Shown here one piece after another: positions 6,896 through 63,185 of a DNA stretch of 64,000 nucleotides (position 1 is its first letter; each line of letters opens with the position of its first letter). The position numbers and the translations under genes were made by a program. A model generated the notes under the pieces. The model ran no database searches and was not told where the DNA came from. It saw only the letters and a program-made list of their open reading frames with translations. This DNA comes from Escherichia coli (lineage in GTDB: Bacteria; Pseudomonadota; Gammaproteobacteria; Enterobacterales; Enterobacteriaceae): NCBI RefSeq assembly GCF_003018255.1, contig NZ_CP027440.1, one strand, 5' to 3'.

Positions 6896-7219
6896 ATGAG
6901 ACTTCTGATTCTGACTCTTTCATTAATAACGCTGGCGGGGTGTACGGTTACTCGCCAGGCCCATGTGAGCGAAGTTGACGCGGCAACAGGTATTGTACGG
7001 TTGGTTTATGACCAGGCTTTTTTGCAGCATGCCTATACCGATCGTTATGTCAGTCGCGGGATCGCCGATCGCGCATGCCAGCAGGAAGGCTATACCCACG
7101 CTATCCCCTTTGGTCAGCCAGTAGGCAACTGTAGCCTCTTTGCGGGTTCCTTATGTTTGAATACGGAATTCACTTTGTCATATCAGTGCCATCATTCCGC
7201 CTTCCCTGTCTTTCTCTAA
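6896..7219 (+). CDS. yecR: lipoprotein YecR
   Basis: 107-aa ORF with lipoprotein signal MRLLILTLSLITLAGC. Confidence 0.85.
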   Translation: MRLLILTLSLITLAGCTVTRQAHVSEVDAATGIVRLVYDQAFLQHAYTDRYVSRGIADRACQQEGYTHAIPFGQPVGNCSLFAGSLCLNTEFTLSYQCHHSAFPVFL

Positions 7220-51526: not shown

Positions 51527-52070
51527 GACTCAATCATTTTTTGAACAAATAGATAAATTTTGCGCAACGGCGGTGAATACAGGAAAATTCGATTTGAACG
51601 ATGTTATTTATCTTTGATTTCGGCTTTATTAATTCACTCAATCAATATATTGGCACTGATTACAATTATACCTTTTTATTTTTCTGTGTCATCATGCCTC
51701 CGTTATTAGCCTTTTATCGTCTTGTTTATATTTTTTTGGCCGGCATGATGCCGGCTTTTTTTATGCCTTCATTAATGTGCGCGAGATCACACCAGCCGTT
51801 TAGCACACAATCATTGATACTCCCTATCTTTTCGATCAACTCATAACATATTGATATACATCCATAATGTTCGTGAATATTTATATTCAGAATTCATAGC
51901 CACGAATTATATTAAATAGATTAGAAACATTTTGAAATCTTTTAAATACATTTGTTACATGTAATCTTTAAAATAAAATGAACTTCATAGAATAGTATCC
52001 AAATGTGCTTTTTTTGGATAACAGCACTTATTGATATATTCATGAAGATTATAATCACAAGGGAATACAT

Positions 52071-52172
52071 AATGAAAAGAAAAGTTCTGGCAATGCTGGT
52101 CCCGGCGTTATTAGTTGCTGGCGCAGCAAATGCGGCTGAAATTTATAATAAAAATGGGTTTTTTGTTGCCTG
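52071..52172 (+). pseudogene. yedS: 5' remnant of an OmpC-family porin gene (yedS-like), truncated after about 30 codons
   Basis: atgaaaagaaaagttctggcaatgctggtc... translates to [29 protein letters not shown] then FFVA-stop. This is the porin signal peptide plus mature N-terminus (AEIYNK[DN]G); homology ends where the prophage begins. Confidence 0.8.
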
Positions 52173-52244
52173 AAATTTATGCTCTTTAAAATCATGATGT
52201 TAGAAGCACTGTTTTTTAACGATGGCGACAAAATGGCGGCAGCG

Positions 52245-52463
52245 TCAAAGAGAGAGCGCCACCTGTCCTGATTTCATTGGATGCGGCTGAACCGGATTTG
52301 ACTCTTTTGGCGTTGCAATCGAACGAACAAAAGTTTCATGAGTAACAAAAGTATGGCTGCAGTTAATGTTCTGGCACTGGTTGTAACGCTCTTTGGTCAA
52401 TGAAGATACCTGAAAACTGCTGCGAGTATGGGCGGCACTTCCACACAGTGGGCAAATCATCAT
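52245..52463 (-). CDS. ogr: P2 Ogr-like zinc-finger late-gene transcription activator
   Basis: ORF 52245..52496; MICPLCGSAAHTRSSFQVSSLTKERYNQCQNINCSHTFVTHETF contains the CxxC...CxxxxC Ogr/Delta zinc finger. Confidence 0.85.
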   Translation of the reverse strand: MMICPLCGSAAHTRSSFQVSSLTKERYNQCQNINCSHTFVTHETFVRSIATPKESNPVQPHPMKSGQVALSL

Positions 52464-52553
52464 TTTTCGAGTTCTCCCCATTTTTGCTAAATTCACAATA
52501 ATGATACCGCATTATTCCATTTTGAAAACTTAAAAGTTCTCCATTGCGAAGAA

Positions 52554-53654
52554 TCATTCCATTTCGAAATCATCAATCTTCACTTCAAGCTCCAGACTGG
52601 TCGTAAAACCGTTATCCGGGCTGACAGTATGCGTCAGGGTGGTAATAGTCCATTCCGCATCATCTATCGGCTGTTTAAAGCCACTGACTTTCACTGGCAT
52701 TTCCGTGTAGAGATCTGCCCGCCCTTCCGCCAGTTGTAGCGAGAATGACGCAACGCCGCGTTGCAGGCGTTCCCACTGCATTTTCGCCGCTCGTTCGGCG
52801 TTGCTCCGGTTGGCATAAGTGCGATTAAGTACCAGCACGTTTTCATCCGTACCCACCAGGTAATCGCCCTGCTTCGCTTCCGGCTCTTTCTTCTGCTTCT
52901 TAGTTCTGCGCTTACGCTTCACCGTGGTGCTTTCTTTCTTCGCGGGTTCGCGGGTATGCAACCAGCTGGCAATTACGCCCGTGTAAGCTCCGCGATCTGC
53001 CAGGGTAAAGCGGTGACTGTCGCCGTCCTTACGTGTGATAGTGATAACCGGTAGTGGTTTACCACTGGCGCTTTTACCCTGCCCCTGCCTGATGAATAAC
53101 AGATTGCCATTTTTCACCGACGCAATAGCACCGTACTGGCGCGCCAGCCGCATCAGAAAACTGCCGTCACTCTCATTGGTCTGGTCTATATGTTCCACGG
53201 GTTTATCTGACAGGTCTTTACCCAATGCCATCTTCAGTTTGTGCCGCGCAGCTATTTCCTTCACCACTTCCCCAACGGTGGTCTTGTGCCACGACTTTTC
53301 ACGGCGGGTATTCAGTGTTTCACGAAAATCAGCACTTCGCGCCCGGATAGTCAGGCGGTCCGGTGCGCCAGTGTGTTCAATCTCGTCCACTGTGAATGCC
53401 CCTTTCGGGAAAAGCGGCTGCCCCTTCCAGCCTAGCGCCAGCGTAATGACCGCACCACGGCGCGGCAGCGCTATTTTTCCATCGGCGTCATCCAGGTCCA
53501 GATCAAGCTGGTCCGCTTCAAAGCCCCGGTTATCCGTCAGCGTCAGACTCATCAGGCGGTTATCCAGCACAGTGGTGATATCCCTGCCCTCAATACTGAT
53601 ACTGAATGCCGGAGTTTTGTTGCCTTTGTTAAGCAGTTCAGAGCTGAAATTCAC
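52554..53654 (-). CDS. P2 gpD-like tail protein (late control gene D)
   Basis: 366-aa ORF MNFSSELLNKGNKTPAFSISIEGRDITTVLDNRLMSLTLTDNRGFEADQLDLDLDDADG..., gpD family; position between ogr and U. Confidence 0.85.
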   Translation of the reverse strand: MNFSSELLNKGNKTPAFSISIEGRDITTVLDNRLMSLTLTDNRGFEADQLDLDLDDADGKIALPRRGAVITLALGWKGQPLFPKGAFTVDEIEHTGAPDRLTIRARSADFRETLNTRREKSWHKTTVGEVVKEIAARHKLKMALGKDLSDKPVEHIDQTNESDGSFLMRLARQYGAIASVKNGNLLFIRQGQGKSASGKPLPVITITRKDGDSHRFTLADRGAYTGVIASWLHTREPAKKESTTVKRKRRTKKQKKEPEAKQGDYLVGTDENVLVLNRTYANRSNAERAAKMQWERLQRGVASFSLQLAEGRADLYTEMPVKVSGFKQPIDDAEWTITTLTHTVSPDNGFTTSLELEVKIDDFEME

Positions 53655-54136
53655 GACAGAAGCCCTCCCACCGTTTTACTGATATCGCTTAAGGCAGATG
53701 TTGCCGTTCCCTGCAGATTATTCAGCTGCGCACTGAGATCACCGAACATATCGGACAGGGATTCATCCACCCGTTTGAGCGACAGGGTGAACTCAATCCG
53801 GCGCGGCATACCGTTGCGGAAAAACTCCGTTTTAGTCTGATTCAGTCCCTCAATCACATACATGCCGTAAATCGTGCCGCTGCCTTCAATCAGAGGCCAT
53901 GCTTTCCCCTGTTCTGCCATCTGCTCAAGTGCCAGCAACGACAGCCTGCCGCCTGTTATCTCCGGCATAAGAACACCGGAAAGCGTCAGCATGTCGTTGT
54001 CTGGTCCCAGAAACTGCGTGGACGGACGACGATTTACCCGGCTGTTAACCGCATGTCGCCAGCTGCGTTGATACTGCAGTTCCTGATACGGCACGGTGCG
54101 CAGCATAAACACGTACAATCCCAGCACCATCATCAT
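53651..54136 (-). CDS. P2 gpU-like tail protein
   Basis: 161-aa ORF; position between D and the tape-measure gene; 4-bp overlaps on both sides. Confidence 0.8.
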   Translation of the reverse strand: MMMVLGLYVFMLRTVPYQELQYQRSWRHAVNSRVNRRPSTQFLGPDNDMLTLSGVLMPEITGGRLSLLALEQMAEQGKAWPLIEGSGTIYGMYVIEGLNQTKTEFFRNGMPRRIEFTLSLKRVDESLSDMFGDLSAQLNNLQGTATSALSDISKTVGGLLS

Positions 54137-57100
54137 GCGTCGTATCCCCCCTGATCGCTGTAGTTACTCCTGGCTTTTGCCTTCAGCCTGCGTTCACGTT
54201 CATCAAGCTGGCGTGCCACCTCCCGCGCAATATCCTGCGCACTTTGTCCTGGCTGCGTCTGAATGATGATCTGCGTCGGTGCCTCAATCCGTTGAACGAG
54301 CGGCACAGTGGCTGCGCGACTCACAATTGCTTCTCCACCTTTCGCGGGAAGTGCCAAAGGGTGCAACGGTGGAAGCTCTGCTGGCGCGGCAGCAACGCCC
54401 ATCATTCCGGCAACAACGGCAGCCAGTGCAGCTGTATTTCTCCGGCTGGTCACATTTGCCGGGCCGTTAACAATTTCCGGCCCGTTTTCACCGACGATGC
54501 CAAACTGCCCGCGCGGGATATACCCGCCGCTGTCATACATCCCCGCAAAGCCATATCCCCATGATGGAAAACCACCCGATGGCATCATCACTTTACCGTC
54601 TGCATTCACCGTCGCAGGTTGCTGACGCGTCACGCTTTCCGGCAGTTTTGCCTTTGCGGCCTCTTTACTGACAATGCCGAGCTTCTCCAGCAACCAGGAA
54701 ACGCCGGATTTCAGGGAGTCCAGCGGATGCATGACCATATTCAGCCCTTCCACCAGTGCCTCCCCGAATCGCCGCCCCATTGCCGCTGCGCTCTGCAGTT
54801 CGGCAGAGGTCGACTTAACGGGCGTCAGCAGATCAGTAAACCAGCCCCACAGCGCCTGCACTTTGTCGCCAATCCACTGGAACACGGGCTTAAGCGGTTC
54901 GAACGCTGCACTGATGGGACCTGCCGCCGCTTTGAATCCTTCCACCACGCCACCGAGAAATGCGGTGATGGGTTGCCAGTATTTCCAGACAACCAGCGCC
55001 ACGCCCGCCAGTGCAGTAACCACAAGACCTATCGGACTGAGCAGAGCACCTAACAGACCAGATATGGCATACAGGGCAACGCGCAGCATCGCCAGTGGAC
55101 CAGATGCCAGTACTCGCAGCACCGTGCCTGCGGCGGCCAGTCCACCGCGCAGTACCGACAGAGGATTCATAAACATCACAGCAACAGCACGTAAACCGGA
55201 TAATCCAGACCGCAAAAGTGCAACCGGCGCACCTGCTACAGTTTTCAGGACATTTCCCGTCAGTGATGCCGTGCGGCGCAAAGACGACAACGGCGCAGTA
55301 AGTAAACCTGCGGCGTTGCCCGATGAAGCAAGCCCGCGTCGCAGCAGTGCCAGTGGTGCGCCAGCCAGCCAGGACAACGCGCTGCTGGTTCGAGTTACTG
55401 CTGCCGTAACGAAAGATAACGTTTTGATACCCAGCACAGAGAATCCCAGACGGATCACTGCCAGCGGCCCCAGCACTGCAGCCAGCGCCACCGCTAAGGT
55501 GCCGAGGCCGACGGTAACCGCAGCCACAACAGCCGATGCTTTCATCAGTGTGCCTGTCAGTTCCGGGTTAGCTTCCACCCAGCGACGCAACGCCCCCGTG
55601 ACGCTTTTCACCGTGTACAGAATATCCATCAGCGGCTGGCGCAGCGTTTCGCCCAGGCTGCTGAAGGTGTTCTGCGCTCCGGTTTTGACCAGCAACCACT
55701 GCGCAGAAAGTGAATCCTTGTTAATGTCGGATTCTTTCTGCATGGAGCCGAGCGCATCATTGCCCGCTGTCAGTTTTAACTGACGCTGCAGTTCCGGCAG
55801 GTTGTTTGCCAGTTTCGCCGCGTCATCGCCAAACTCTTTACCAAACAACATAGTCATGGCAGACAGGCGCTTGTCCTGCGGCAGCGCGTTTACCTTCTCC
55901 AGCACGCGCTGGATGGTTCCCATCGCATCCTTCGTCATCTGCTTTTCAATCACTTCAGGATTGAGTTTCAGCAAATTCATCCCTTCAAAGAAACTTTTGC
56001 TTTGCATGGTGGCAATGGACAATTCACGCACCATCGCGTTTGCTGCACTGGCTGCAACCTCTGGCGCAGCGCCCAGTGTCAGGAAGGTGGAACCCAGCGC
56101 CGCCGCTTTACGATAATCCAGACGGTCAGCCACACCGCCCAGACGTTGCATCACATCAATGATGTCTGCCCCTTTCGACATGGCGTTATCATCCAGATAG
56201 TTCAGCGCATCACCGAGCTGTTCAATATTGCGGGTGGGGATTTTGTAGAGCTGGGCGATTTTCCCCAGACTTTCTGACAGTTCATCCGCTGGCAGCTCAA
56301 AGGCTGTTGCCGCCTTTGCTGCCGTACTGGCGAAGGCCAGCAGGTCACGTTTCTGATCTTCCCAACTGTCGTCAGGGTTTGCGACGTTCATGCGCGCACC
56401 ACCTTCAACCAGTGCAGCGAAATCCACCGCACCGTTTTCCATCGGCAACTGTTCGCTGGCAGCCTTGATGGCATCCTGCATTTCATAAAAACGTGCAGTG
56501 CGGTTGCCATTATCGTCACGCAGACCATTGACCTGCTTTGCCACACCTTTCATGGCATCTTCCATGCTGGTATAGCTTTTTACTGCCGCCATCACTGGTG
56601 CGCCCATTGCCAGCCCTGCAGCCGTGGTGGTGGCTCCGGCACCTGCAATACGATCACGCACCTCCAGCGAACGGGCATAACTGGCACGCGCTGCATTCAT
56701 CCTGCGCTGAGCTTCCCCCAGTCGCTTCAGCCGCGCCTCCTGTTTCGAAAGTTCCTGGTTATAACGTGATGTTTCACGGGCTAAACGGGCAGTTGCTCCC
56801 GCATCGTCTTTCGCAGAAATTCCCGCCCGGTACAGTTCAGCACGCACAAGCGCCGTCTGCTGCTGCAGCTTTTTCTGGCGTTCTTCCAGGCGCTGAACAG
56901 CCAGCCGTTGACGGCCCAGAGCAACAACCTGACGTTGCGAAGGCGGCCCCATCGCTCCCAGTTCCTGACTGAGCAAATTTGCACGCTGGCGGGCATAGTT
57001 CAGCCTGTCGCCTAATTTCTGATTTTCTGCCTGCAGCTTTCGGAAGCTGTCCAGACTGCTCCCGGCCTGATCAAGCTGCTTTATTGCATCGCGGGATTTT

Positions 57101-57210
57101 TTGACAGCAGCAGCCAGTTCTCTTGAACTGGCCTGCGCAGATCGAAATGGGCGGGTGAGCTTGTCAACCGCATTAAGAATGACCTGCAGACGCAGGTTGT
57201 TATCACTCAT
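54133..57210 (-). CDS. tail tape-measure protein (P2 gpT-like)
   Basis: 1025-aa ORF with Ala/Leu-rich coiled-coil N-terminal half and Gly/Ala-rich segments, typical of tape-measure proteins. Confidence 0.88.
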   Translation of the reverse strand: MSDNNLRLQVILNAVDKLTRPFRSAQASSRELAAAVKKSRDAIKQLDQAGSSLDSFRKLQAENQKLGDRLNYARQRANLLSQELGAMGPPSQRQVVALGRQRLAVQRLEERQKKLQQQTALVRAELYRAGISAKDDAGATARLARETSRYNQELSKQEARLKRLGEAQRRMNAARASYARSLEVRDRIAGAGATTTAAGLAMGAPVMAAVKSYTSMEDAMKGVAKQVNGLRDDNGNRTARFYEMQDAIKAASEQLPMENGAVDFAALVEGGARMNVANPDDSWEDQKRDLLAFASTAAKAATAFELPADELSESLGKIAQLYKIPTRNIEQLGDALNYLDDNAMSKGADIIDVMQRLGGVADRLDYRKAAALGSTFLTLGAAPEVAASAANAMVRELSIATMQSKSFFEGMNLLKLNPEVIEKQMTKDAMGTIQRVLEKVNALPQDKRLSAMTMLFGKEFGDDAAKLANNLPELQRQLKLTAGNDALGSMQKESDINKDSLSAQWLLVKTGAQNTFSSLGETLRQPLMDILYTVKSVTGALRRWVEANPELTGTLMKASAVVAAVTVGLGTLAVALAAVLGPLAVIRLGFSVLGIKTLSFVTAAVTRTSSALSWLAGAPLALLRRGLASSGNAAGLLTAPLSSLRRTASLTGNVLKTVAGAPVALLRSGLSGLRAVAVMFMNPLSVLRGGLAAAGTVLRVLASGPLAMLRVALYAISGLLGALLSPIGLVVTALAGVALVVWKYWQPITAFLGGVVEGFKAAAGPISAAFEPLKPVFQWIGDKVQALWGWFTDLLTPVKSTSAELQSAAAMGRRFGEALVEGLNMVMHPLDSLKSGVSWLLEKLGIVSKEAAKAKLPESVTRQQPATVNADGKVMMPSGGFPSWGYGFAGMYDSGGYIPRGQFGIVGENGPEIVNGPANVTSRRNTAALAAVVAGMMGVAAAPAELPPLHPLALPAKGGEAIVSRAATVPLVQRIEAPTQIIIQTQPGQSAQDIAREVARQLDERERRLKAKARSNYSDQGGYDA

Positions 57211-57336
57211 CGTTGGCCCCGCTTCTCTGAATCGCTTTATACCGCCATTCCAGCACTTCGGTCAGCGGCATAACGTCAGTAACGGATGGCGGCCAGTGAA
57301 AAATGGTGGCGATATCTGCCACCAGATCGTCAACCG

Positions 57337-57639
57337 TCAGGCTGTCGGTAAACCGGCAAGCACCGACTTCTTCAACAAAAAAGTGACAACCTCAACCGAC
57401 ATGGCAGTGAGATCTGCCGGGTCCATCTCTGCAATTTCCTGTGCAGTCAGTGCCGGACTGGAGATGCGGGGGATCACGATCATCATCGCGTTTACATCCA
57501 TATCCATAATGGCCTGCAGGCGTGTACCGCGCAGCGCACCGGACTGCGGTTTACGCAGCACAATTTCGGTGATTTCTGTTTTACCGCGCTTGATGGGGGT
57601 ATCCAGTTGAATGGTCTTTTCAGTCTGCTTATCGCTCAT
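57337..57639 (-). CDS. P2 gpE-like tail assembly chaperone (0-frame product; E+E' made by -1 frameshift extends to about 57203)
   Basis: 100-aa ORF MSDKQTEKTIQLDTPIKRGKTEITEIVLRKPQSGALRGTRLQAIMDMD...; a slippery site lies near its 3' end. Confidence 0.8.
   Translation of the reverse strand: MSDKQTEKTIQLDTPIKRGKTEITEIVLRKPQSGALRGTRLQAIMDMDVNAMMIVIPRISSPALTAQEIAEMDPADLTAMSVEVVTFLLKKSVLAGLPTA
57376..57382 (-). promoter_or_regulatory. programmed -1 ribosomal frameshift slippery heptamer T-TTT-TTG (E to E+E')
   Basis: Minus strand reads ACT TTT TTG in the E frame. The -1 frame stays open for about 59 further codons, stopping at TGA overlapping the first codons of the tape-measure gene. Confidence 0.7.
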
Positions 57640-57693
57640 TTTGCTGTCCTGTCAATTGGGTTCTGGCGCGGTATCCCGCGCCGTTCAGATATA

Positions 57694-58209
57694 TCAGAGG
57701 CCGAGGGCGTTGCGGTGCGCTTCCATCAGGTCCACACCGTCCACAATTTCCACCATGTTGATAAGGTCCACTTCATAGAGCACCTCACCATTGATGGTCA
57801 GCTTCGCGTAGCTGTTGGTACTGGTCACTTTGGTGGTGTTGCTTTCGCCCGTCTTCCACTCGCCGGAATCCACTTCTTTGTGACGTCCACGCACGACAAG
57901 CTCCACAGCCTGCACTTCCCCGGTATCGTCACGCTGAATAGAGCCGGTAAAGCGCAGCTGGATGCCATCCACCGTGGCTTTACCCATCTGTTTAAACAGC
58001 AGCAATTCAGTACCACCAATGGAAAATTCTGTGTCCAGCGCACTGTCATCAAGCCCCAGATCCACATCCACCGCACCCGGCATTCCGCCGCCGCGATACT
58101 TCTCATATTTGCGGGTGAATTTCGGCAGCGTCAGCGACTCAACGATCCCCTGCCAGTTGTTCCCGTCGTTAAACAGGTTCAGGTGTTTTAATTTGCGTGG
58201 TAAAGCCAT
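57694..58209 (-). CDS. tail tube protein (P2 FII-like)
   Basis: 171-aa ORF MALPRKLKHLNLFNDGNNWQGIVESLTLPKFTRKYEKYRGGGMPGAVDVDLGLDDSALD. Confidence 0.88.
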   Translation of the reverse strand: MALPRKLKHLNLFNDGNNWQGIVESLTLPKFTRKYEKYRGGGMPGAVDVDLGLDDSALDTEFSIGGTELLLFKQMGKATVDGIQLRFTGSIQRDDTGEVQAVELVVRGRHKEVDSGEWKTGESNTTKVTSTNSYAKLTINGEVLYEVDLINMVEIVDGVDLMEAHRNALGL

Positions 58210-58218
58210 GTTGTCCCC

Positions 58219-59391
58219 TTACGCGCTGACCTGGCTGGCGAAATTCACCAGGTACTGATCGGTGATGCGCTGACGCAGCATCAGGTTTTCAAGTGGCGGC
58301 ACTGGCGTGTAGTCGTAGTCGATGGTGAGTTTTCCGGCTTTCAGCGTGTCTTTGTCGTTCACCGACTCATCCAGCCAGCAATCACCACCAATGAGATAGC
58401 CCTGACTGACCAGGCTGCGCATTTTGGCGCGGATACCTTCGATAATGTCGCGGGCCAGCGACGGGTTAAGCGGTTTATCCACCGCCCACATGTGTGCTTC
58501 TGCCATCGTGTCCATCAGCACCTGCGCCGTGCGGGTGTAGTTTTCGAAGGCAAAGAGCGGGTCATCACTCAGGCAGCGGGAACCCCAGAAGCGGAAACCG
58601 TCTTTACGCACAAGCGTGGTGACGTCGTTCTGGTTCAGCAGACCTGCATCGGTTGCCGGGTCCTGCAGATCCCAGAACACATCTGCAGAAATTCCGGTGA
58701 CACCGTTCACGCCCACGTTGGACAGGCTTTTGTGCCATCCGGTCTGCTCGTCAATTTTGGCGCGCAGACCAAGCGCACGGGCGGTGGCATATGCCGTTGC
58801 TTCGGCATTCAGCACCGTGTCCCAGCCAGTAAAGTCAGGCCAGATCAGCATCCCTTCGCGCTGGCTGAAGTTTTCGCGGTAAGTGATCGCCTCCTGCACT
58901 GTCTTGCAGCCATACGCTGACAGGTAAGCAAATCCACGCAGGCTTTGCGCCACGCTCAGCAACTCAGTAGCTACCGCCTTGGTGTCGTGGCCTGGCACGC
59001 CGAGAATGCGCGGTTTAACGCCGAGCTGTGACTGGGCAGATAACAGGGCTTTCATACCTGTTTTTTTACCTTCAGCAGTCACTGCGCCGATGATATTGGT
59101 CGTGGTTTCGTCTTCCGTTTCACCCTGCGGCACACGCACAACAATGGTCACGGGTTTTGCCTGGTCAGCGATGGCATCCAGCGAACGGGCCAGAGTACCG
59201 GACTCACCCGCTTTACCGCTGGCAGTCAGCACATCAGTGATCAGCACGGGTTTATTAAGAGGAAACATTTTTGCATCGGCATCATCGCCCGTGCAGACCA
59301 TACCCACGATGGCGGTGCTCACCGTGGTAATAGATCGGGTGCCTTCGTTGACTTCAACAACGCGCACCCCGTGGTGGTAATCCTGAGCCAT
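58219..59391 (-). CDS. contractile tail sheath protein (P2 FI-like)
   Basis: 390-aa [56 protein letters not shown]. Confidence 0.9.
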
Positions 59392-60100: not shown

Positions 60101-60155
60101 GATCATCCCCCTGAATAAAAACCGGAGATGATGCCAGTTAGCTGTTACCTCTGCA

Positions 60156-60181
60156 TTTTCTTAAACGTTGGTTTGGGAGAA
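60156..60181. repeat. invertase crossover site, left (pix/gix/cix-like)
   Basis: ttttcttaaacgttggtttgggagaa; inverted repeat of the site at 62124..62149. Confidence 0.75.
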
Positions 60182-60664
60182 GGTTCAGCATTACCTGTTG
60201 GTGCGCCTGTTCCGTGGCCTTCAGAGACACCTCCAACAGGCTGGCTGAAATGCAACGGGGCGGCTTTTTCTGCTGAAGAATACCCGGAACTGGCAAAGGC
60301 TTACCCGACAAATAAATTGCCTGATTTACGAGGTGAATTTATTCGTGGCTGGGATGATGAACGTGGTGTGGATAGTGGGCGAACTCTGCTTTCAGCGCAA
60401 GGAGATGCTATTCGAAACATTACTGGCGGTTTTGGTCAGTTGCGCGTAAACAGCGAAATTAATGCAATTGTCGATGTTCAAAGTGTGAGTGGGGCTTTTT
60501 ACGGAGGTACCTCAGTCCGGAATAACATCAATGTGTCTATGACATACGCTAATGACCGAAAAATCCGACAAGATGTTCACTTCTCGGCGGCAAATGTTGT
60601 TCCAACAGCAAATGAAAATCGTCCACGTAACATCGCCTTTAATTATATTGTGAGGGCCGCATGA
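60156..60664 (+). CDS. alternative tail-fibre C-terminal segment (Sv'-like), silent in this orientation and lacking its own start
   Basis: The frame is open through the crossover site (..LGE-GSALPVGAPVPWPSETPPTGWLKCNGAAFSAEEYPELAKAYPTNKLPDLRGEFIRGWDDERG...), so inversion would fuse it to the H constant part at the conserved GLGE junction. The track's ATG at 60128 is probably not a real start. Confidence 0.7.
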
Positions 60665-61265
60665 TGAATAAAGCTGTATTAAATAGCAAACTCATTGCCA
60701 TAAAAGCGGGAGACATTATCATTTATAATTATGATGGTGAAACGCGGGAATATATTTCTACATCAACTGAATATCTCGCTGTCGGCGTCGGTATCCGGCA
60801 TGTTCTTGTTTGGATGCACCAGGTACACATAAAGCTGGTTATGCAATTTGTCGTTCTGTAGATTTAAACTCATGGGAATATGTGCCAGACCATCGCGGTG
60901 AAGTTGTCTATAACACCGAAACGGGAGAATCAAAAGAAATCACAGCTCCGGGTGATTACCCTGAAAATACAACCACTATCGCCCCATTAACGCCATACGA
61001 TAAATGGGATGGCGAGAAATGGGTGACGGATACCGAGGCACAGCATAGCGCCGCAGTAGATGCAGCGGAAGCACAGCGCCAGTCGCTGATTGATACTGCA
61101 ATGGCTTCCATCAGTCTGATTCAACTGAAATTGCATGCCGGACGTAAACTGACGCAGGCAGAAACAACCCGGCTTAACGCTGTGCTGGATTACATTGACA
61201 CGGTGACGGCAACAGATACCAGCACCGCGCCGGATGTCATCTGGCCTGAACTACCGGAGGCGTAG
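60661..61265 (+). pseudogene. tail-fibre assembly protein gene (Tfa', partner of Sv') with an apparent 1-bp frameshift
   Basis: N-terminal part in frame 1 (60661..60861, MMNKAVLNSKLIAIKAGDIIIYNYDGETREYISTSTEYLAVGVGI) and C-terminal part in another frame (60810..61265, ...DAPGTHKAGYAICRSV...TDTSTAPDVIWPELPEA). The frames join if one C is added in ggtatc-cggca around 60795. Confidence 0.6.
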
Positions 61266-61680
61266 GCCATTCAATATCTGGAGCACTGGAGGTATCAACC
61301 AGTTCCAGTGCGTCCAGATAATCCAGCCATAAATTATATTGTTCCAGTTCGTCACCTTTCAGACGACCAATAGCAGCTTTGCCAGGCCACTGATGGGTGT
61401 TGATGTAGGTATTGGCTTCTGAAACCAAAGATATTTTTTTCATTTCAGCCATCAACACCTCATCCTCTTTTGAAGGCGGTGGGGAATTAATCCATATTGG
61501 CCGTCCTGAACTGTCAGCGCCAATTTCTTTCCCTTCTGGATGCAGCCCAAGAAATTGCTCATATCTTTCTCTGGTAATTTCAATAACATCATCAGGAAGC
61601 GTTCCCGCATCCTCATATTCTGGAAACAATTCTTGCAGATAAAAACTTTTACTTCCGGGTGAAAAGAATACTGAGTTCAT
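61237..61680 (-). CDS. tail-fibre assembly protein (Tfa / P2 gpG-like), active orientation
   Basis: 147-aa ORF directly downstream of H; C-terminus ...DTSSAPDIEWPTPPVVQAR resembles the Tfa family C-terminal motif. Confidence 0.8.
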   Translation of the reverse strand: MNSVFFSPGSKSFYLQELFPEYEDAGTLPDDVIEITRERYEQFLGLHPEGKEIGADSSGRPIWINSPPPSKEDEVLMAEMKKISLVSEANTYINTHQWPGKAAIGRLKGDELEQYNLWLDYLDALELVDTSSAPDIEWPTPPVVQAR

Positions 61681-61682
61681 TC

Positions 61683-63185
61683 TTACCGTCCAATGATTAA
61701 GGCTGAGACGCTGGTATCTGAAGGAAAGGCTGCATTCAGTGGTTTGTCGACTTTGAATACAATCGTATTATTCCCCCTGACAGCGGCAAAAGAACAAACC
61801 GCAGTCGCGTATGAACCTGTAATATTACTGGATACACCACCATAAGCTGTTGTTGATACCAGAGGGATAACGCCCAGCACCTTATTAGGAAATACAAAGG
61901 GCAATGTGGCTGTGGCAATATAAGACTTATTAGAACCTGTGATGGAATAAGCATTATCAGTCATTCCATTCATCGCCACTGGGCCGCTTATACTTACAGT
62001 AACCATCTGAATGATTAGCCCGTCAGGTTGACGAATCACAAAATTTCCATTGCCACCAGTAACCGTCCAGAAAGACATATCAGGGATTTGGTTTTCCCCG
62101 TTGCCCACATTCCGTTTTGCCGCTTCTCCCAAACCAAGGTATGTGAGAAGACCAGCTACATCCTTTCCACTCAAATTGGTAAGCGTATTGTCCAGCGGTT
62201 GTTTACCTGCCAGCGCATTAAGCATTGTCGTGGCAAAGTTCGGATCATTCCCCAGTGCCGCCGCCAGTTCGTTCAGTGTATCCAGTGCAGCAGGTGCAGA
62301 ACCCACCATTCCTGCAATCGCCGATTTCACAAAAGCCGTAGTGGCAATCTGTGTATTGTTGACCGACTGCGCCGCCGTGGGGGCTGTTGGCGTTCCGGTG
62401 AGTGCCGGACTCGACAACGGTGCTTTTAGTGCCAGCGCATTGTTAATGGTGGTACTGAAATTCGGATCATTGTTAATGGCTGCGGCTATTTCTTTCAGCG
62501 TGTCCAGCGTGGCTGGCGCACCATTAATAAGGGCCGTCAGTGCCGCCTGTACAAACGCAGTGGTCGCAACCTGCGTGGTATTATTCCCCGCCGCTGGCGT
62601 TGGCGCTTTGGGGGTTCCGGTAAATGTCGGGCTGGCTTTTGGCGCGTACTGTGAATGCGGGTCCGGTGCGGCAAGATGTTTTGCCATCTGATCATCCGCG
62701 TACACCTTCAGCTCCAGTGCCTTGTCATCCACATACTTGCGGGTTGCCAGCACTACAGCAGGGTCGATTTTCAGGGTGATATTGTCCGTGCTGCTGGTAA
62801 TCAGCACCATGCGCACGGTCTGAGTGCGCCCGCTACCTTCAGCCAGTTGCGGCTTATAGCTTTCCGGGCAGTTGCCCACGGCAATCAATGCCCCGGACTC
62901 ATCAAACAAGCCCACTTCACGTATCCACCAACCGCCCTCGTTTTCAGGGATCACCTGTTCGGCAATAATCTGGCTGCTGTTCTGCGGGTCGATATAAAGC
63001 ATATTCAGCGCAGCCCGGCGTTTCTCATTTACCAGTGCCGTCTGCTTTGCGTCCGGCGTTGGCAATACTCCACCGCCATCGCCCACCGCCATATGGGTAA
63101 TTTTTAGCGGCACACCGAGCGCGGCGGCGCTGGCAAGTTTCGCCGCGCCAATATCCGTCAGCAGGGTATAAAATTTTGTGCTCAT
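61683..63185 (-). CDS. tail fibre protein (P2 gpH-like); C-terminal part (61683..62123) lies inside the invertible segment
   Basis: 500-aa ORF; N-terminus MSTKFYTLLTDIGAAKLASAAALGVPLKITHMAVGDGGG... resembles P2 gpH; repeated motif TAFV...ALDTLNELAAALGNDPNF. Confidence 0.88.
   Translation of the reverse strand: MSTKFYTLLTDIGAAKLASAAALGVPLKITHMAVGDGGGVLPTPDAKQTALVNEKRRAALNMLYIDPQNSSQIIAEQVIPENEGGWWIREVGLFDESGALIAVGNCPESYKPQLAEGSGRTQTVRMVLITSSTDNITLKIDPAVVLATRKYVDDKALELKVYADDQMAKHLAAPDPHSQYAPKASPTFTGTPKAPTPAAGNNTTQVATTAFVQAALTALINGAPATLDTLKEIAAAINNDPNFSTTINNALALKAPLSSPALTGTPTAPTAAQSVNNTQIATTAFVKSAIAGMVGSAPAALDTLNELAAALGNDPNFATTMLNALAGKQPLDNTLTNLSGKDVAGLLTYLGLGEAAKRNVGNGENQIPDMSFWTVTGGNGNFVIRQPDGLIIQMVTVSISGPVAMNGMTDNAYSITGSNKSYIATATLPFVFPNKVLGVIPLVSTTAYGGVSSNITGSYATAVCSFAAVRGNNTIVFKVDKPLNAAFPSDTSVSALIIGR
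62124..62149. repeat. invertase crossover site, right (pix/gix/cix-like)
   Basis: ttctcccaaaccaaggtatgtgagaa; lies inside the H coding sequence at codons ~346-354 (LTYLGLGEA). Confidence 0.75.

Follow-up and report, generated by a model that had tools for sequence, protein, structure and literature searches.

A P2 E/E′-type programmed −1 frameshift site is very probably present in the tail operon of a P2-like prophage of Escherichia coli

Results

A P2-like tail operon on the minus strand

The window, by which we mean the whole stretch of 64,000 nt of E. coli DNA that was analysed, carries on one strand a series of tail genes in the order FI-FII-E/E′-T-U-D-ogr, which corresponds to the FETUD arrangement of phage P2. 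As judged by ORF and Pfam inspection, all these genes lie on the minus strand. The sheath gene FI (59391..58219) is followed by an FII-like tail tube gene (57694..58209; Pfam PF04985 Phage_tube, 8.8e-60) that is located immediately upstream of gene E, and the E/E′ region is followed by a gpT-like tape measure gene of 1025 aa (54133..57210; Pfam PF10145 PhageMin_Tail, 2e-18), by the genes for gpU (54136..53651) and gpD (53654..52554) and by ogr (52496..52245). The tape measure label, which is also found on identical E. coli and phage records, designates the presumed client of the chaperones discussed below. A preliminary description of this DNA, made from its letters, had anticipated the arrangement expected of tape-measure chaperones, and this is what the location of E/E′ between the tube gene FII and the tape-measure gene T, in FETUD order, corresponds to. 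Inspection of ORFs and Pfam matches revealed no inactivating mutations in FI, FII, T, U and D of this copy.

The prophage appears to be inserted in a porin gene, since the match with the chromosome (yedJ-drpB-porin) stops at around 52157, inside the 5′ part of the porin ORF 52003..52173, and ogr comes next; the end of the prophage is thus placed at approximately 52003..52245. Among 5426 complete E. coli genomes, this porin/prophage junction is found in a single one, and in strain H1 the same tail module adjoins ybjL. At the other side of the operon, the sheath gene is separated from oppositely oriented ORFs for tail fibres and fibre assembly (60128..61265 on the plus strand and 61237..63185 on the minus strand) by the gene of a serine recombinase of 190 aa, which matches Pfam Resolvase (2e-53) and HTH_7. 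The segment 59534..63185 looks like an invertible host-range segment of the Mu Gin or P1 Cin type, in contrast to classical P2, which lacks such a segment.

Two overlapping reading frames at the end of gene E

Gene E occupies positions 57337..57639 of the minus strand, to which all the coordinates in this section refer. It begins at ATG 57639, ends at TGA 57339..57337 and encodes 100 aa in the zero frame. Near its 3′ end, codons 86–88 read ACT TTT TTG, as the preliminary description had reported for a gpE-like ORF, and contain the heptamer T TTT TTG (57376..57382) in the X XXY YYZ phase of a slippery site. In the −1 frame, the open stretch starts at 57391, three codons ahead of the heptamer and directly after a −1 TGA (57394..57392), and translation of both frames revealed no −1 stop right after the heptamer. 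From the heptamer onwards the −1 frame reads FFVEEVGACRFTDSLTVDDLVADIATIFHWPPSVTDVMPLTEVLEWRYKAIQRSGANDE, 59 codons up to TGA 57205..57203, so that the open frame of about 59 codons announced in the preliminary description, ending at a TGA that overlaps the tape-measure gene, is indeed there. The E′ segment after the slip (57203..57376) consists of 57 residues, VEEVGA...GANDE, plus this TGA. Both the C-terminus of E and the N-terminus of E′ are open between 57337 and 57391, which makes this stretch a dual-coding overlap zone, and the start codon of the tape-measure gene (ATG 57210..57208) overlaps the E′ stop codon within the junction ATGAGTGA (57203..57210).

Under a tandem slippage model, UUG would be read as Leu before the slip, and the predicted product is a fusion of 145 aa with the junction peptide ...SVEVVTFLVEEVGACR..., that is, ...VVTFLVEEVGA..., in which the Leu stands between ...VVTF and VEEVGA.... 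The 'FF' given for the junction in the preliminary description holds as a conceptual −1 translation, whereas tandem slippage gives F-L at this point.

How discriminating is the heptamer itself? The window contains 27 copies of TTTTTTG, and shuffled sequences 23 ± 4, so the heptamer alone is not above chance. Mechanical calling gave 143 ORFs of 90 aa or more, with 86 X XXY YYZ heptamers in phase. Five of the 86 lie no more than 30 codons from the end of the ORF and have a −1 frame that extends beyond the stop by 30 codons or more; the four others that share this position with the E/E′ heptamer are not part of the E/E′ feature, and one of them is at the overlap of genes T and U. There, the tape-measure gene has an in-phase G GGG GGA (54145..54151, minus strand) 5 codons from its end, and the −1 frame of this heptamer is that of gene U (164 codons). 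This is most likely an ordinary gene overlap rather than a recoding site, because gene U has its own ATG at 54136 overlapping the T stop. Neither the heptamer count nor the geometry is therefore discriminating, and the case rests on homology and conservation.

Both frames encode P2-type tail protein domains

The zero-frame E product matches Pfam PF10109 Phage_TAC_7 (E 1e-18, residues 9–88), a family described as 'tail assembly chaperone proteins E, or 41 or 14', and PHROG 103 'tail protein' (1.6e-43), with PHROGs giving corresponding 'tail' families. The −1 extension matches Pfam PF06528 Phage_P2_GpE with an E of 4e-19 over 37 of the 37 model positions, and the conceptual E+E′ fusion matches both PF10109 and PF06528. 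An NCBIfam scan of E, E′ and the fusion returned no family. AlphaFold2 modelled the 145-aa fusion confidently (pLDDT 88.7, pTM 0.80), with a helix (residues 74–92) that spans the junction at residue 87/88. A PDB sequence search with the fusion gave no match at E ≤ 1, and a Foldseek comparison of the fusion model with the PDB gave nothing significant, the weak scores agreeing in direction with the Pfam label.

According to PMC3091744 and PMC3931495, which summarise Christie et al. 2002, a −1 shift at TTTTTTG yields the P2 proteins E (91 aa) and E+E′ (142 aa). In P2 the shift has been demonstrated by experiment; the two proteins are reported to share a single start, with the fusion as the lesser product, and E′ to be indispensable. 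The preliminary description had claimed that the window uses the same heptamer as P2 E/E′ and had proposed to compare the −1 extension with P2 E′. On both counts the likeness is close: P2 has TTTTTTG in the same phase and in the same alignment column as the window, and, besides the PF06528 match of the extension, BLASTP aligns the E+E′ fusions of the window and P2 without gaps across the junction, at 49% identity and an E of 6e-51. The −1 ORF of P2 comprises 62 codons and ends in ATGAGTAA, overlapping T. The two systems thus share the heptamer, its phase and column, the PF10109 and PF06528 domains, the location between FII and T and the overlap of the E′ stop with the T start. They differ in the lengths of E and of the fusion (91 and 142 aa in P2; 100 and 145 aa in the window) and in the zero-frame tail after the slip, which has 6 codons with a 34-nt overlap in P2 and 13 codons with a 52-nt overlap in the window. 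The clade of the window also differs from P2 at the genus level, being close to the Wadgaonvirus phage 500465-1 and the Felsduovirus RE2010.

Heptamer, phase and −1 frame are conserved in diverged Peduoviridae

We fetched 22 further diverged loci, 21 of which were analysable and, together with the window, make up the 22 lineages counted here; the counts do not include a GC-rich unannotated Ralstonia locus (L100), for which an automatic choice of the E ORF took the wrong frame. Inside the E/E′ overlap, 22 of these 22 Peduoviridae lineages have an X XXY YYZ heptamer in phase. It is TTTTTTG in 16 of them, TTTTTTT in ST79 and TTTTTTC in VP58.5 and Aliivibrio H905, and in distant relatives the same place is taken by GGGAAAG (Mannheimia phage 1127AP1; locus L011, 694..700), AAATTTT (P88_4B11; locus L013, 655..661) or CCCTTTC (Kp4847-1). 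The G GGA AAG of the Mannheimia phage is the heptamer of lambda G/GT. Across the family, then, the slippery site itself turns over and the two-frame architecture is kept. In an alignment of the fusions of 13 lineages the slip site falls in a single column, and the A-D-x-A-x-x-F-x-W and W-R motifs of the E′ extension are invariant. A tblastn search with the fused protein retrieved 419 phage records, 386 of which cover at least 80% of the query, in two pieces that lie in two frames.

Codon-position variability changes frame at the heptamer

A region of 651 bp around the site shares 99.8% identity with the genome of Escherichia phage 500465-1 (Wadgaonvirus, Peduoviridae) and 100% with many E. coli chromosomes, the segment being carried by 998 of 5426 complete E. 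coli genomes. Selection was examined in 80 close relatives from IMG/VR with 81–97% protein identity, which together with the window give 72 unique sequences. The six T's of the heptamer are invariant in all 72, three of which end in A (TTTTTTA, still slippery), and its two wobble T's never vary, compared with 86% of upstream wobble sites that do. Upstream of the heptamer, the mean minor-allele fractions at zero-frame codon positions 1, 2 and 3 are 0.039, 0.024 and 0.208, and downstream of the E stop they become 0.014, 0.112 and 0.033. The variable position thus moves with the frame across the site, because position 2 of a zero-frame codon serves as wobble position in the −1 frame. Within the E/E′ overlap the values are 0.010, 0.017 and 0.033, so all three codon positions are constrained. 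A change of frame by the ribosome at the heptamer would be expected to leave such a switch.

Discussion

In this study, we describe an E. coli prophage of the P2-like (Peduoviridae) type whose tail operon very probably contains a programmed −1 frameshift site of the P2 E/E′ type. The anatomy of the locus, the P2 homology of its two domains and the evolutionary constancy of heptamer, phase and −1 ORF are shown here, and the homology of the −1 extension, the constancy of heptamer and phase and the switch in wobble variability establish that the E/E′ feature is real. Shifting in this prophage, its frequency and the chaperone mechanism are what we infer from there. Most ribosomes translating gene E would stop at 57337 and release the 100-aa chaperone E as the majority product. 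A minority would pause with tRNA-Phe on UUU in the P site and tRNA-Leu on UUG in the A site, both tRNAs would slip back one base onto UUU UUU, and these ribosomes would read on in the −1 frame as far as the TGA at 57203, producing the 145-aa E+E′ protein, which would have the N-terminus of E but another C-terminal domain. If lambda G/GT is a guide, the tape-measure protein might be coated by the E domain common to both products, and tube subunits might be recruited by the E′ domain of the rarer fusion; a fixed shift frequency would set the E : E+E′ ratio, and neither product would end up in the virion. In P2, the frequency of the shift was reportedly about 10% in the 2002 work of Christie et al.

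The lambda G/GT class is defined by overlapping ORFs that lie between the major tail or tube gene and the tape-measure gene and are joined by a −1 shift (PMC5009743), an architecture that E/E′ has as well, since its overlapping ORFs lie between the tube and tape-measure genes and would be joined in the same way. Beyond this shared organization there are differences: lambda is a siphovirus and uses a different heptamer, whereas the window encodes a contractile-tail (myovirus) system, and the Pfam search, which returned P2-type families only, detected no sequence similarity between the two. Frameshifted tail assembly chaperones of this kind are said to be a general pattern of dsDNA phages, a view attributed to Xu, Hendrix and Duda in 2004.

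Why is the fusion protein missing from the databases? In RefSeq/PGAP and in most GenBank phage records, the minus strand carries a CDS of 39 aa called 'GpE family phage tail protein' that begins at GTG 57322 and covers 57203..57322, without a slippage join (for example WP_000763311.1, or the counterpart at 6929..7048 of locus L095). Only a few records, among them those of KS14, KL3 and FLC5, contain a joined E+E′ CDS. E′ is listed as a free-standing gene of 39 aa and therefore the 145-aa product is absent from protein databases, which concerns roughly a fifth of the complete E. coli genomes (998 of 5426). Taken at face value, the annotation means that E′ is an independent small gene, initiated at GTG 57322 and translated into a free-standing 39-aa protein with no frameshift, and a start-type codon (GTG or ATG) does occupy this column in many lineages, including P2. 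We consider this very improbable. The GTG is preceded by GACGGTTGACGATCTG, with no SD-like sequence; VP58.5 has TGG (Trp) in this column and the Mannheimia and KpE16 lineages have ATT or ATC (Ile), and initiation at the next start-type codon of these three would remove the conserved ADIAxxFHW motif. Across the lineages we found no conserved start codon or ribosome-binding site for a separate E′, GTG 57322 being the sole candidate. Moreover, the 19 residues encoded between the slip site and the GTG are conserved with P2 (VxExGA...L[ST]VDDL), and the −1 type of wobble variation begins right after the E stop, upstream of the GTG. In P2 itself, according to the summary of Christie et al. 2002 in PMC3931495, E′ has no ribosome-binding site and arises by extension of E. 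The 39-aa GpE CDS is thus most likely an annotation artefact that truncates E′, as judged from these comparisons. The E/E′ site as such is already known, because its family is well characterised and identical copies exist in hundreds of sequenced genomes; as a piece of textbook phage biology, it adds little that is new. Its practical value lies in the reminder that this frameshift product is systematically misannotated. It also shows that a genuine recoding site can be recognised in raw sequence.

A change of frame could also arise before translation, if RNA polymerase stuttered on the T6 run and an extra U in some transcripts placed E+E′ in a single frame. The homopolymeric run would suit this process, as would the T7 variants found in ST11-OXA245phi3.1 and ST79, the T7G that PMC3931495 gives for Smp131, and the poor performance of the heptamer as a ribosomal shifter in reporters (PMC4066793). 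The relatives speak against it, and we regard polymerase slippage as a most unlikely source of E+E′. The reading phase is kept in 22 of 22 lineages, and phase matters for the re-pairing of tRNAs and not for polymerase slippage. Likewise, the G GGA AAG, A AAT TTT and C CCT TTC of the distant relatives fit tandem tRNA slippage, and polymerase stuttering is impossible on such non-homopolymeric heptamers. Besides, efficient transcriptional slippage in bacteria uses runs longer than six T's. That the heptamer arose by chance in a decaying prophage, with the −1 ORF a relic whose second product is neither made nor needed, is hardly credible: TTTTTTG is at chance frequency in the window, four other heptamers are similarly placed and only part of the prophage lies within the window, but the region is nearly identical to the same segment of the phage 500465-1 genome, the heptamer, phase and −1 ORF are conserved across families down to about 40% protein identity, and the −1 frame bears signatures of purifying selection.

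Returning to programmed frameshifting on the ribosome, which remains the reading we favour, a minor puzzle is that the heptamer is poor in E. coli reporters, as opposed to the useful shift frequency that it would need in its native context. In the reporters of Sharma et al. (PMC4066793, Table S3), U_UUU_UUG was weak, at 0.118% without a stimulator, 0.247% with that of IS911 and 0.765% with that of IS3, compared with 39–54% for the best motifs of the same study. A downstream stimulatory hairpin or pseudoknot was considered and rejected, as the folds are not significantly stabler than shuffles in 13 lineages and the window. The 60 nt past the heptamer gave z values from −1.5 to +1.2 in the 13 lineages, with no common structure, and the 97 nt downstream in the window gave a fold z of −1.9, not significantly stabler than shuffles. 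An Rfam scan of 57000..57800 at E ≤ 1 had no match, and, according to PMC3091744, P2 and three Burkholderia phages lack a downstream hairpin.

Upstream of the heptamer there is a candidate of another kind. Of all sites in gene E of the window, GAGGT (57393..57389, minus strand), which lies 7–11 nt ahead of the heptamer, pairs most strongly with the anti-SD, and in 12 of the 16 TTTTTTG lineages the strongest pairing of gene E with the 16S 3′ end is found just upstream of the heptamer. The candidate stretches (GAGGT, AAGGTGGT, AGGTGATC and GGGGGT) end 4–13 nt before it. When synonymous codons were permuted within the genes, a null model in which protein sequence and codon usage are held fixed, the pairing was mostly within expectation: the p values of single lineages were mostly 0.1–0.7, with 0.016–0.08 reached only in Burkholderia phages, and Fisher's combined p was 0.065, for lineages that are non-independent. 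The SD-like stretch would be accounted for about as well by the conserved E/K-V-V/I peptide encoded there. That the weak U_UUU_UUG, which Peduoviridae nevertheless conserve, relies on a conserved upstream pairing with the anti-SD as a dnaX-like stimulator, and that the E/K-V-V/I peptide is partly a consequence of it, is a tentative and rather doubtful idea. In E. coli dnaX, an SD-like element precedes A AAA AAG and a hairpin follows it. Both systems have a tandem-slippage heptamer in a bacterial host, and the window likewise has a stretch complementary to the anti-SD upstream of it; the window differs in having no downstream hairpin and in an SD-like stretch that lies nearer to the heptamer. 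They differ too in outcome, since the dnaX shift truncates the protein, whereas that of the window would extend it.
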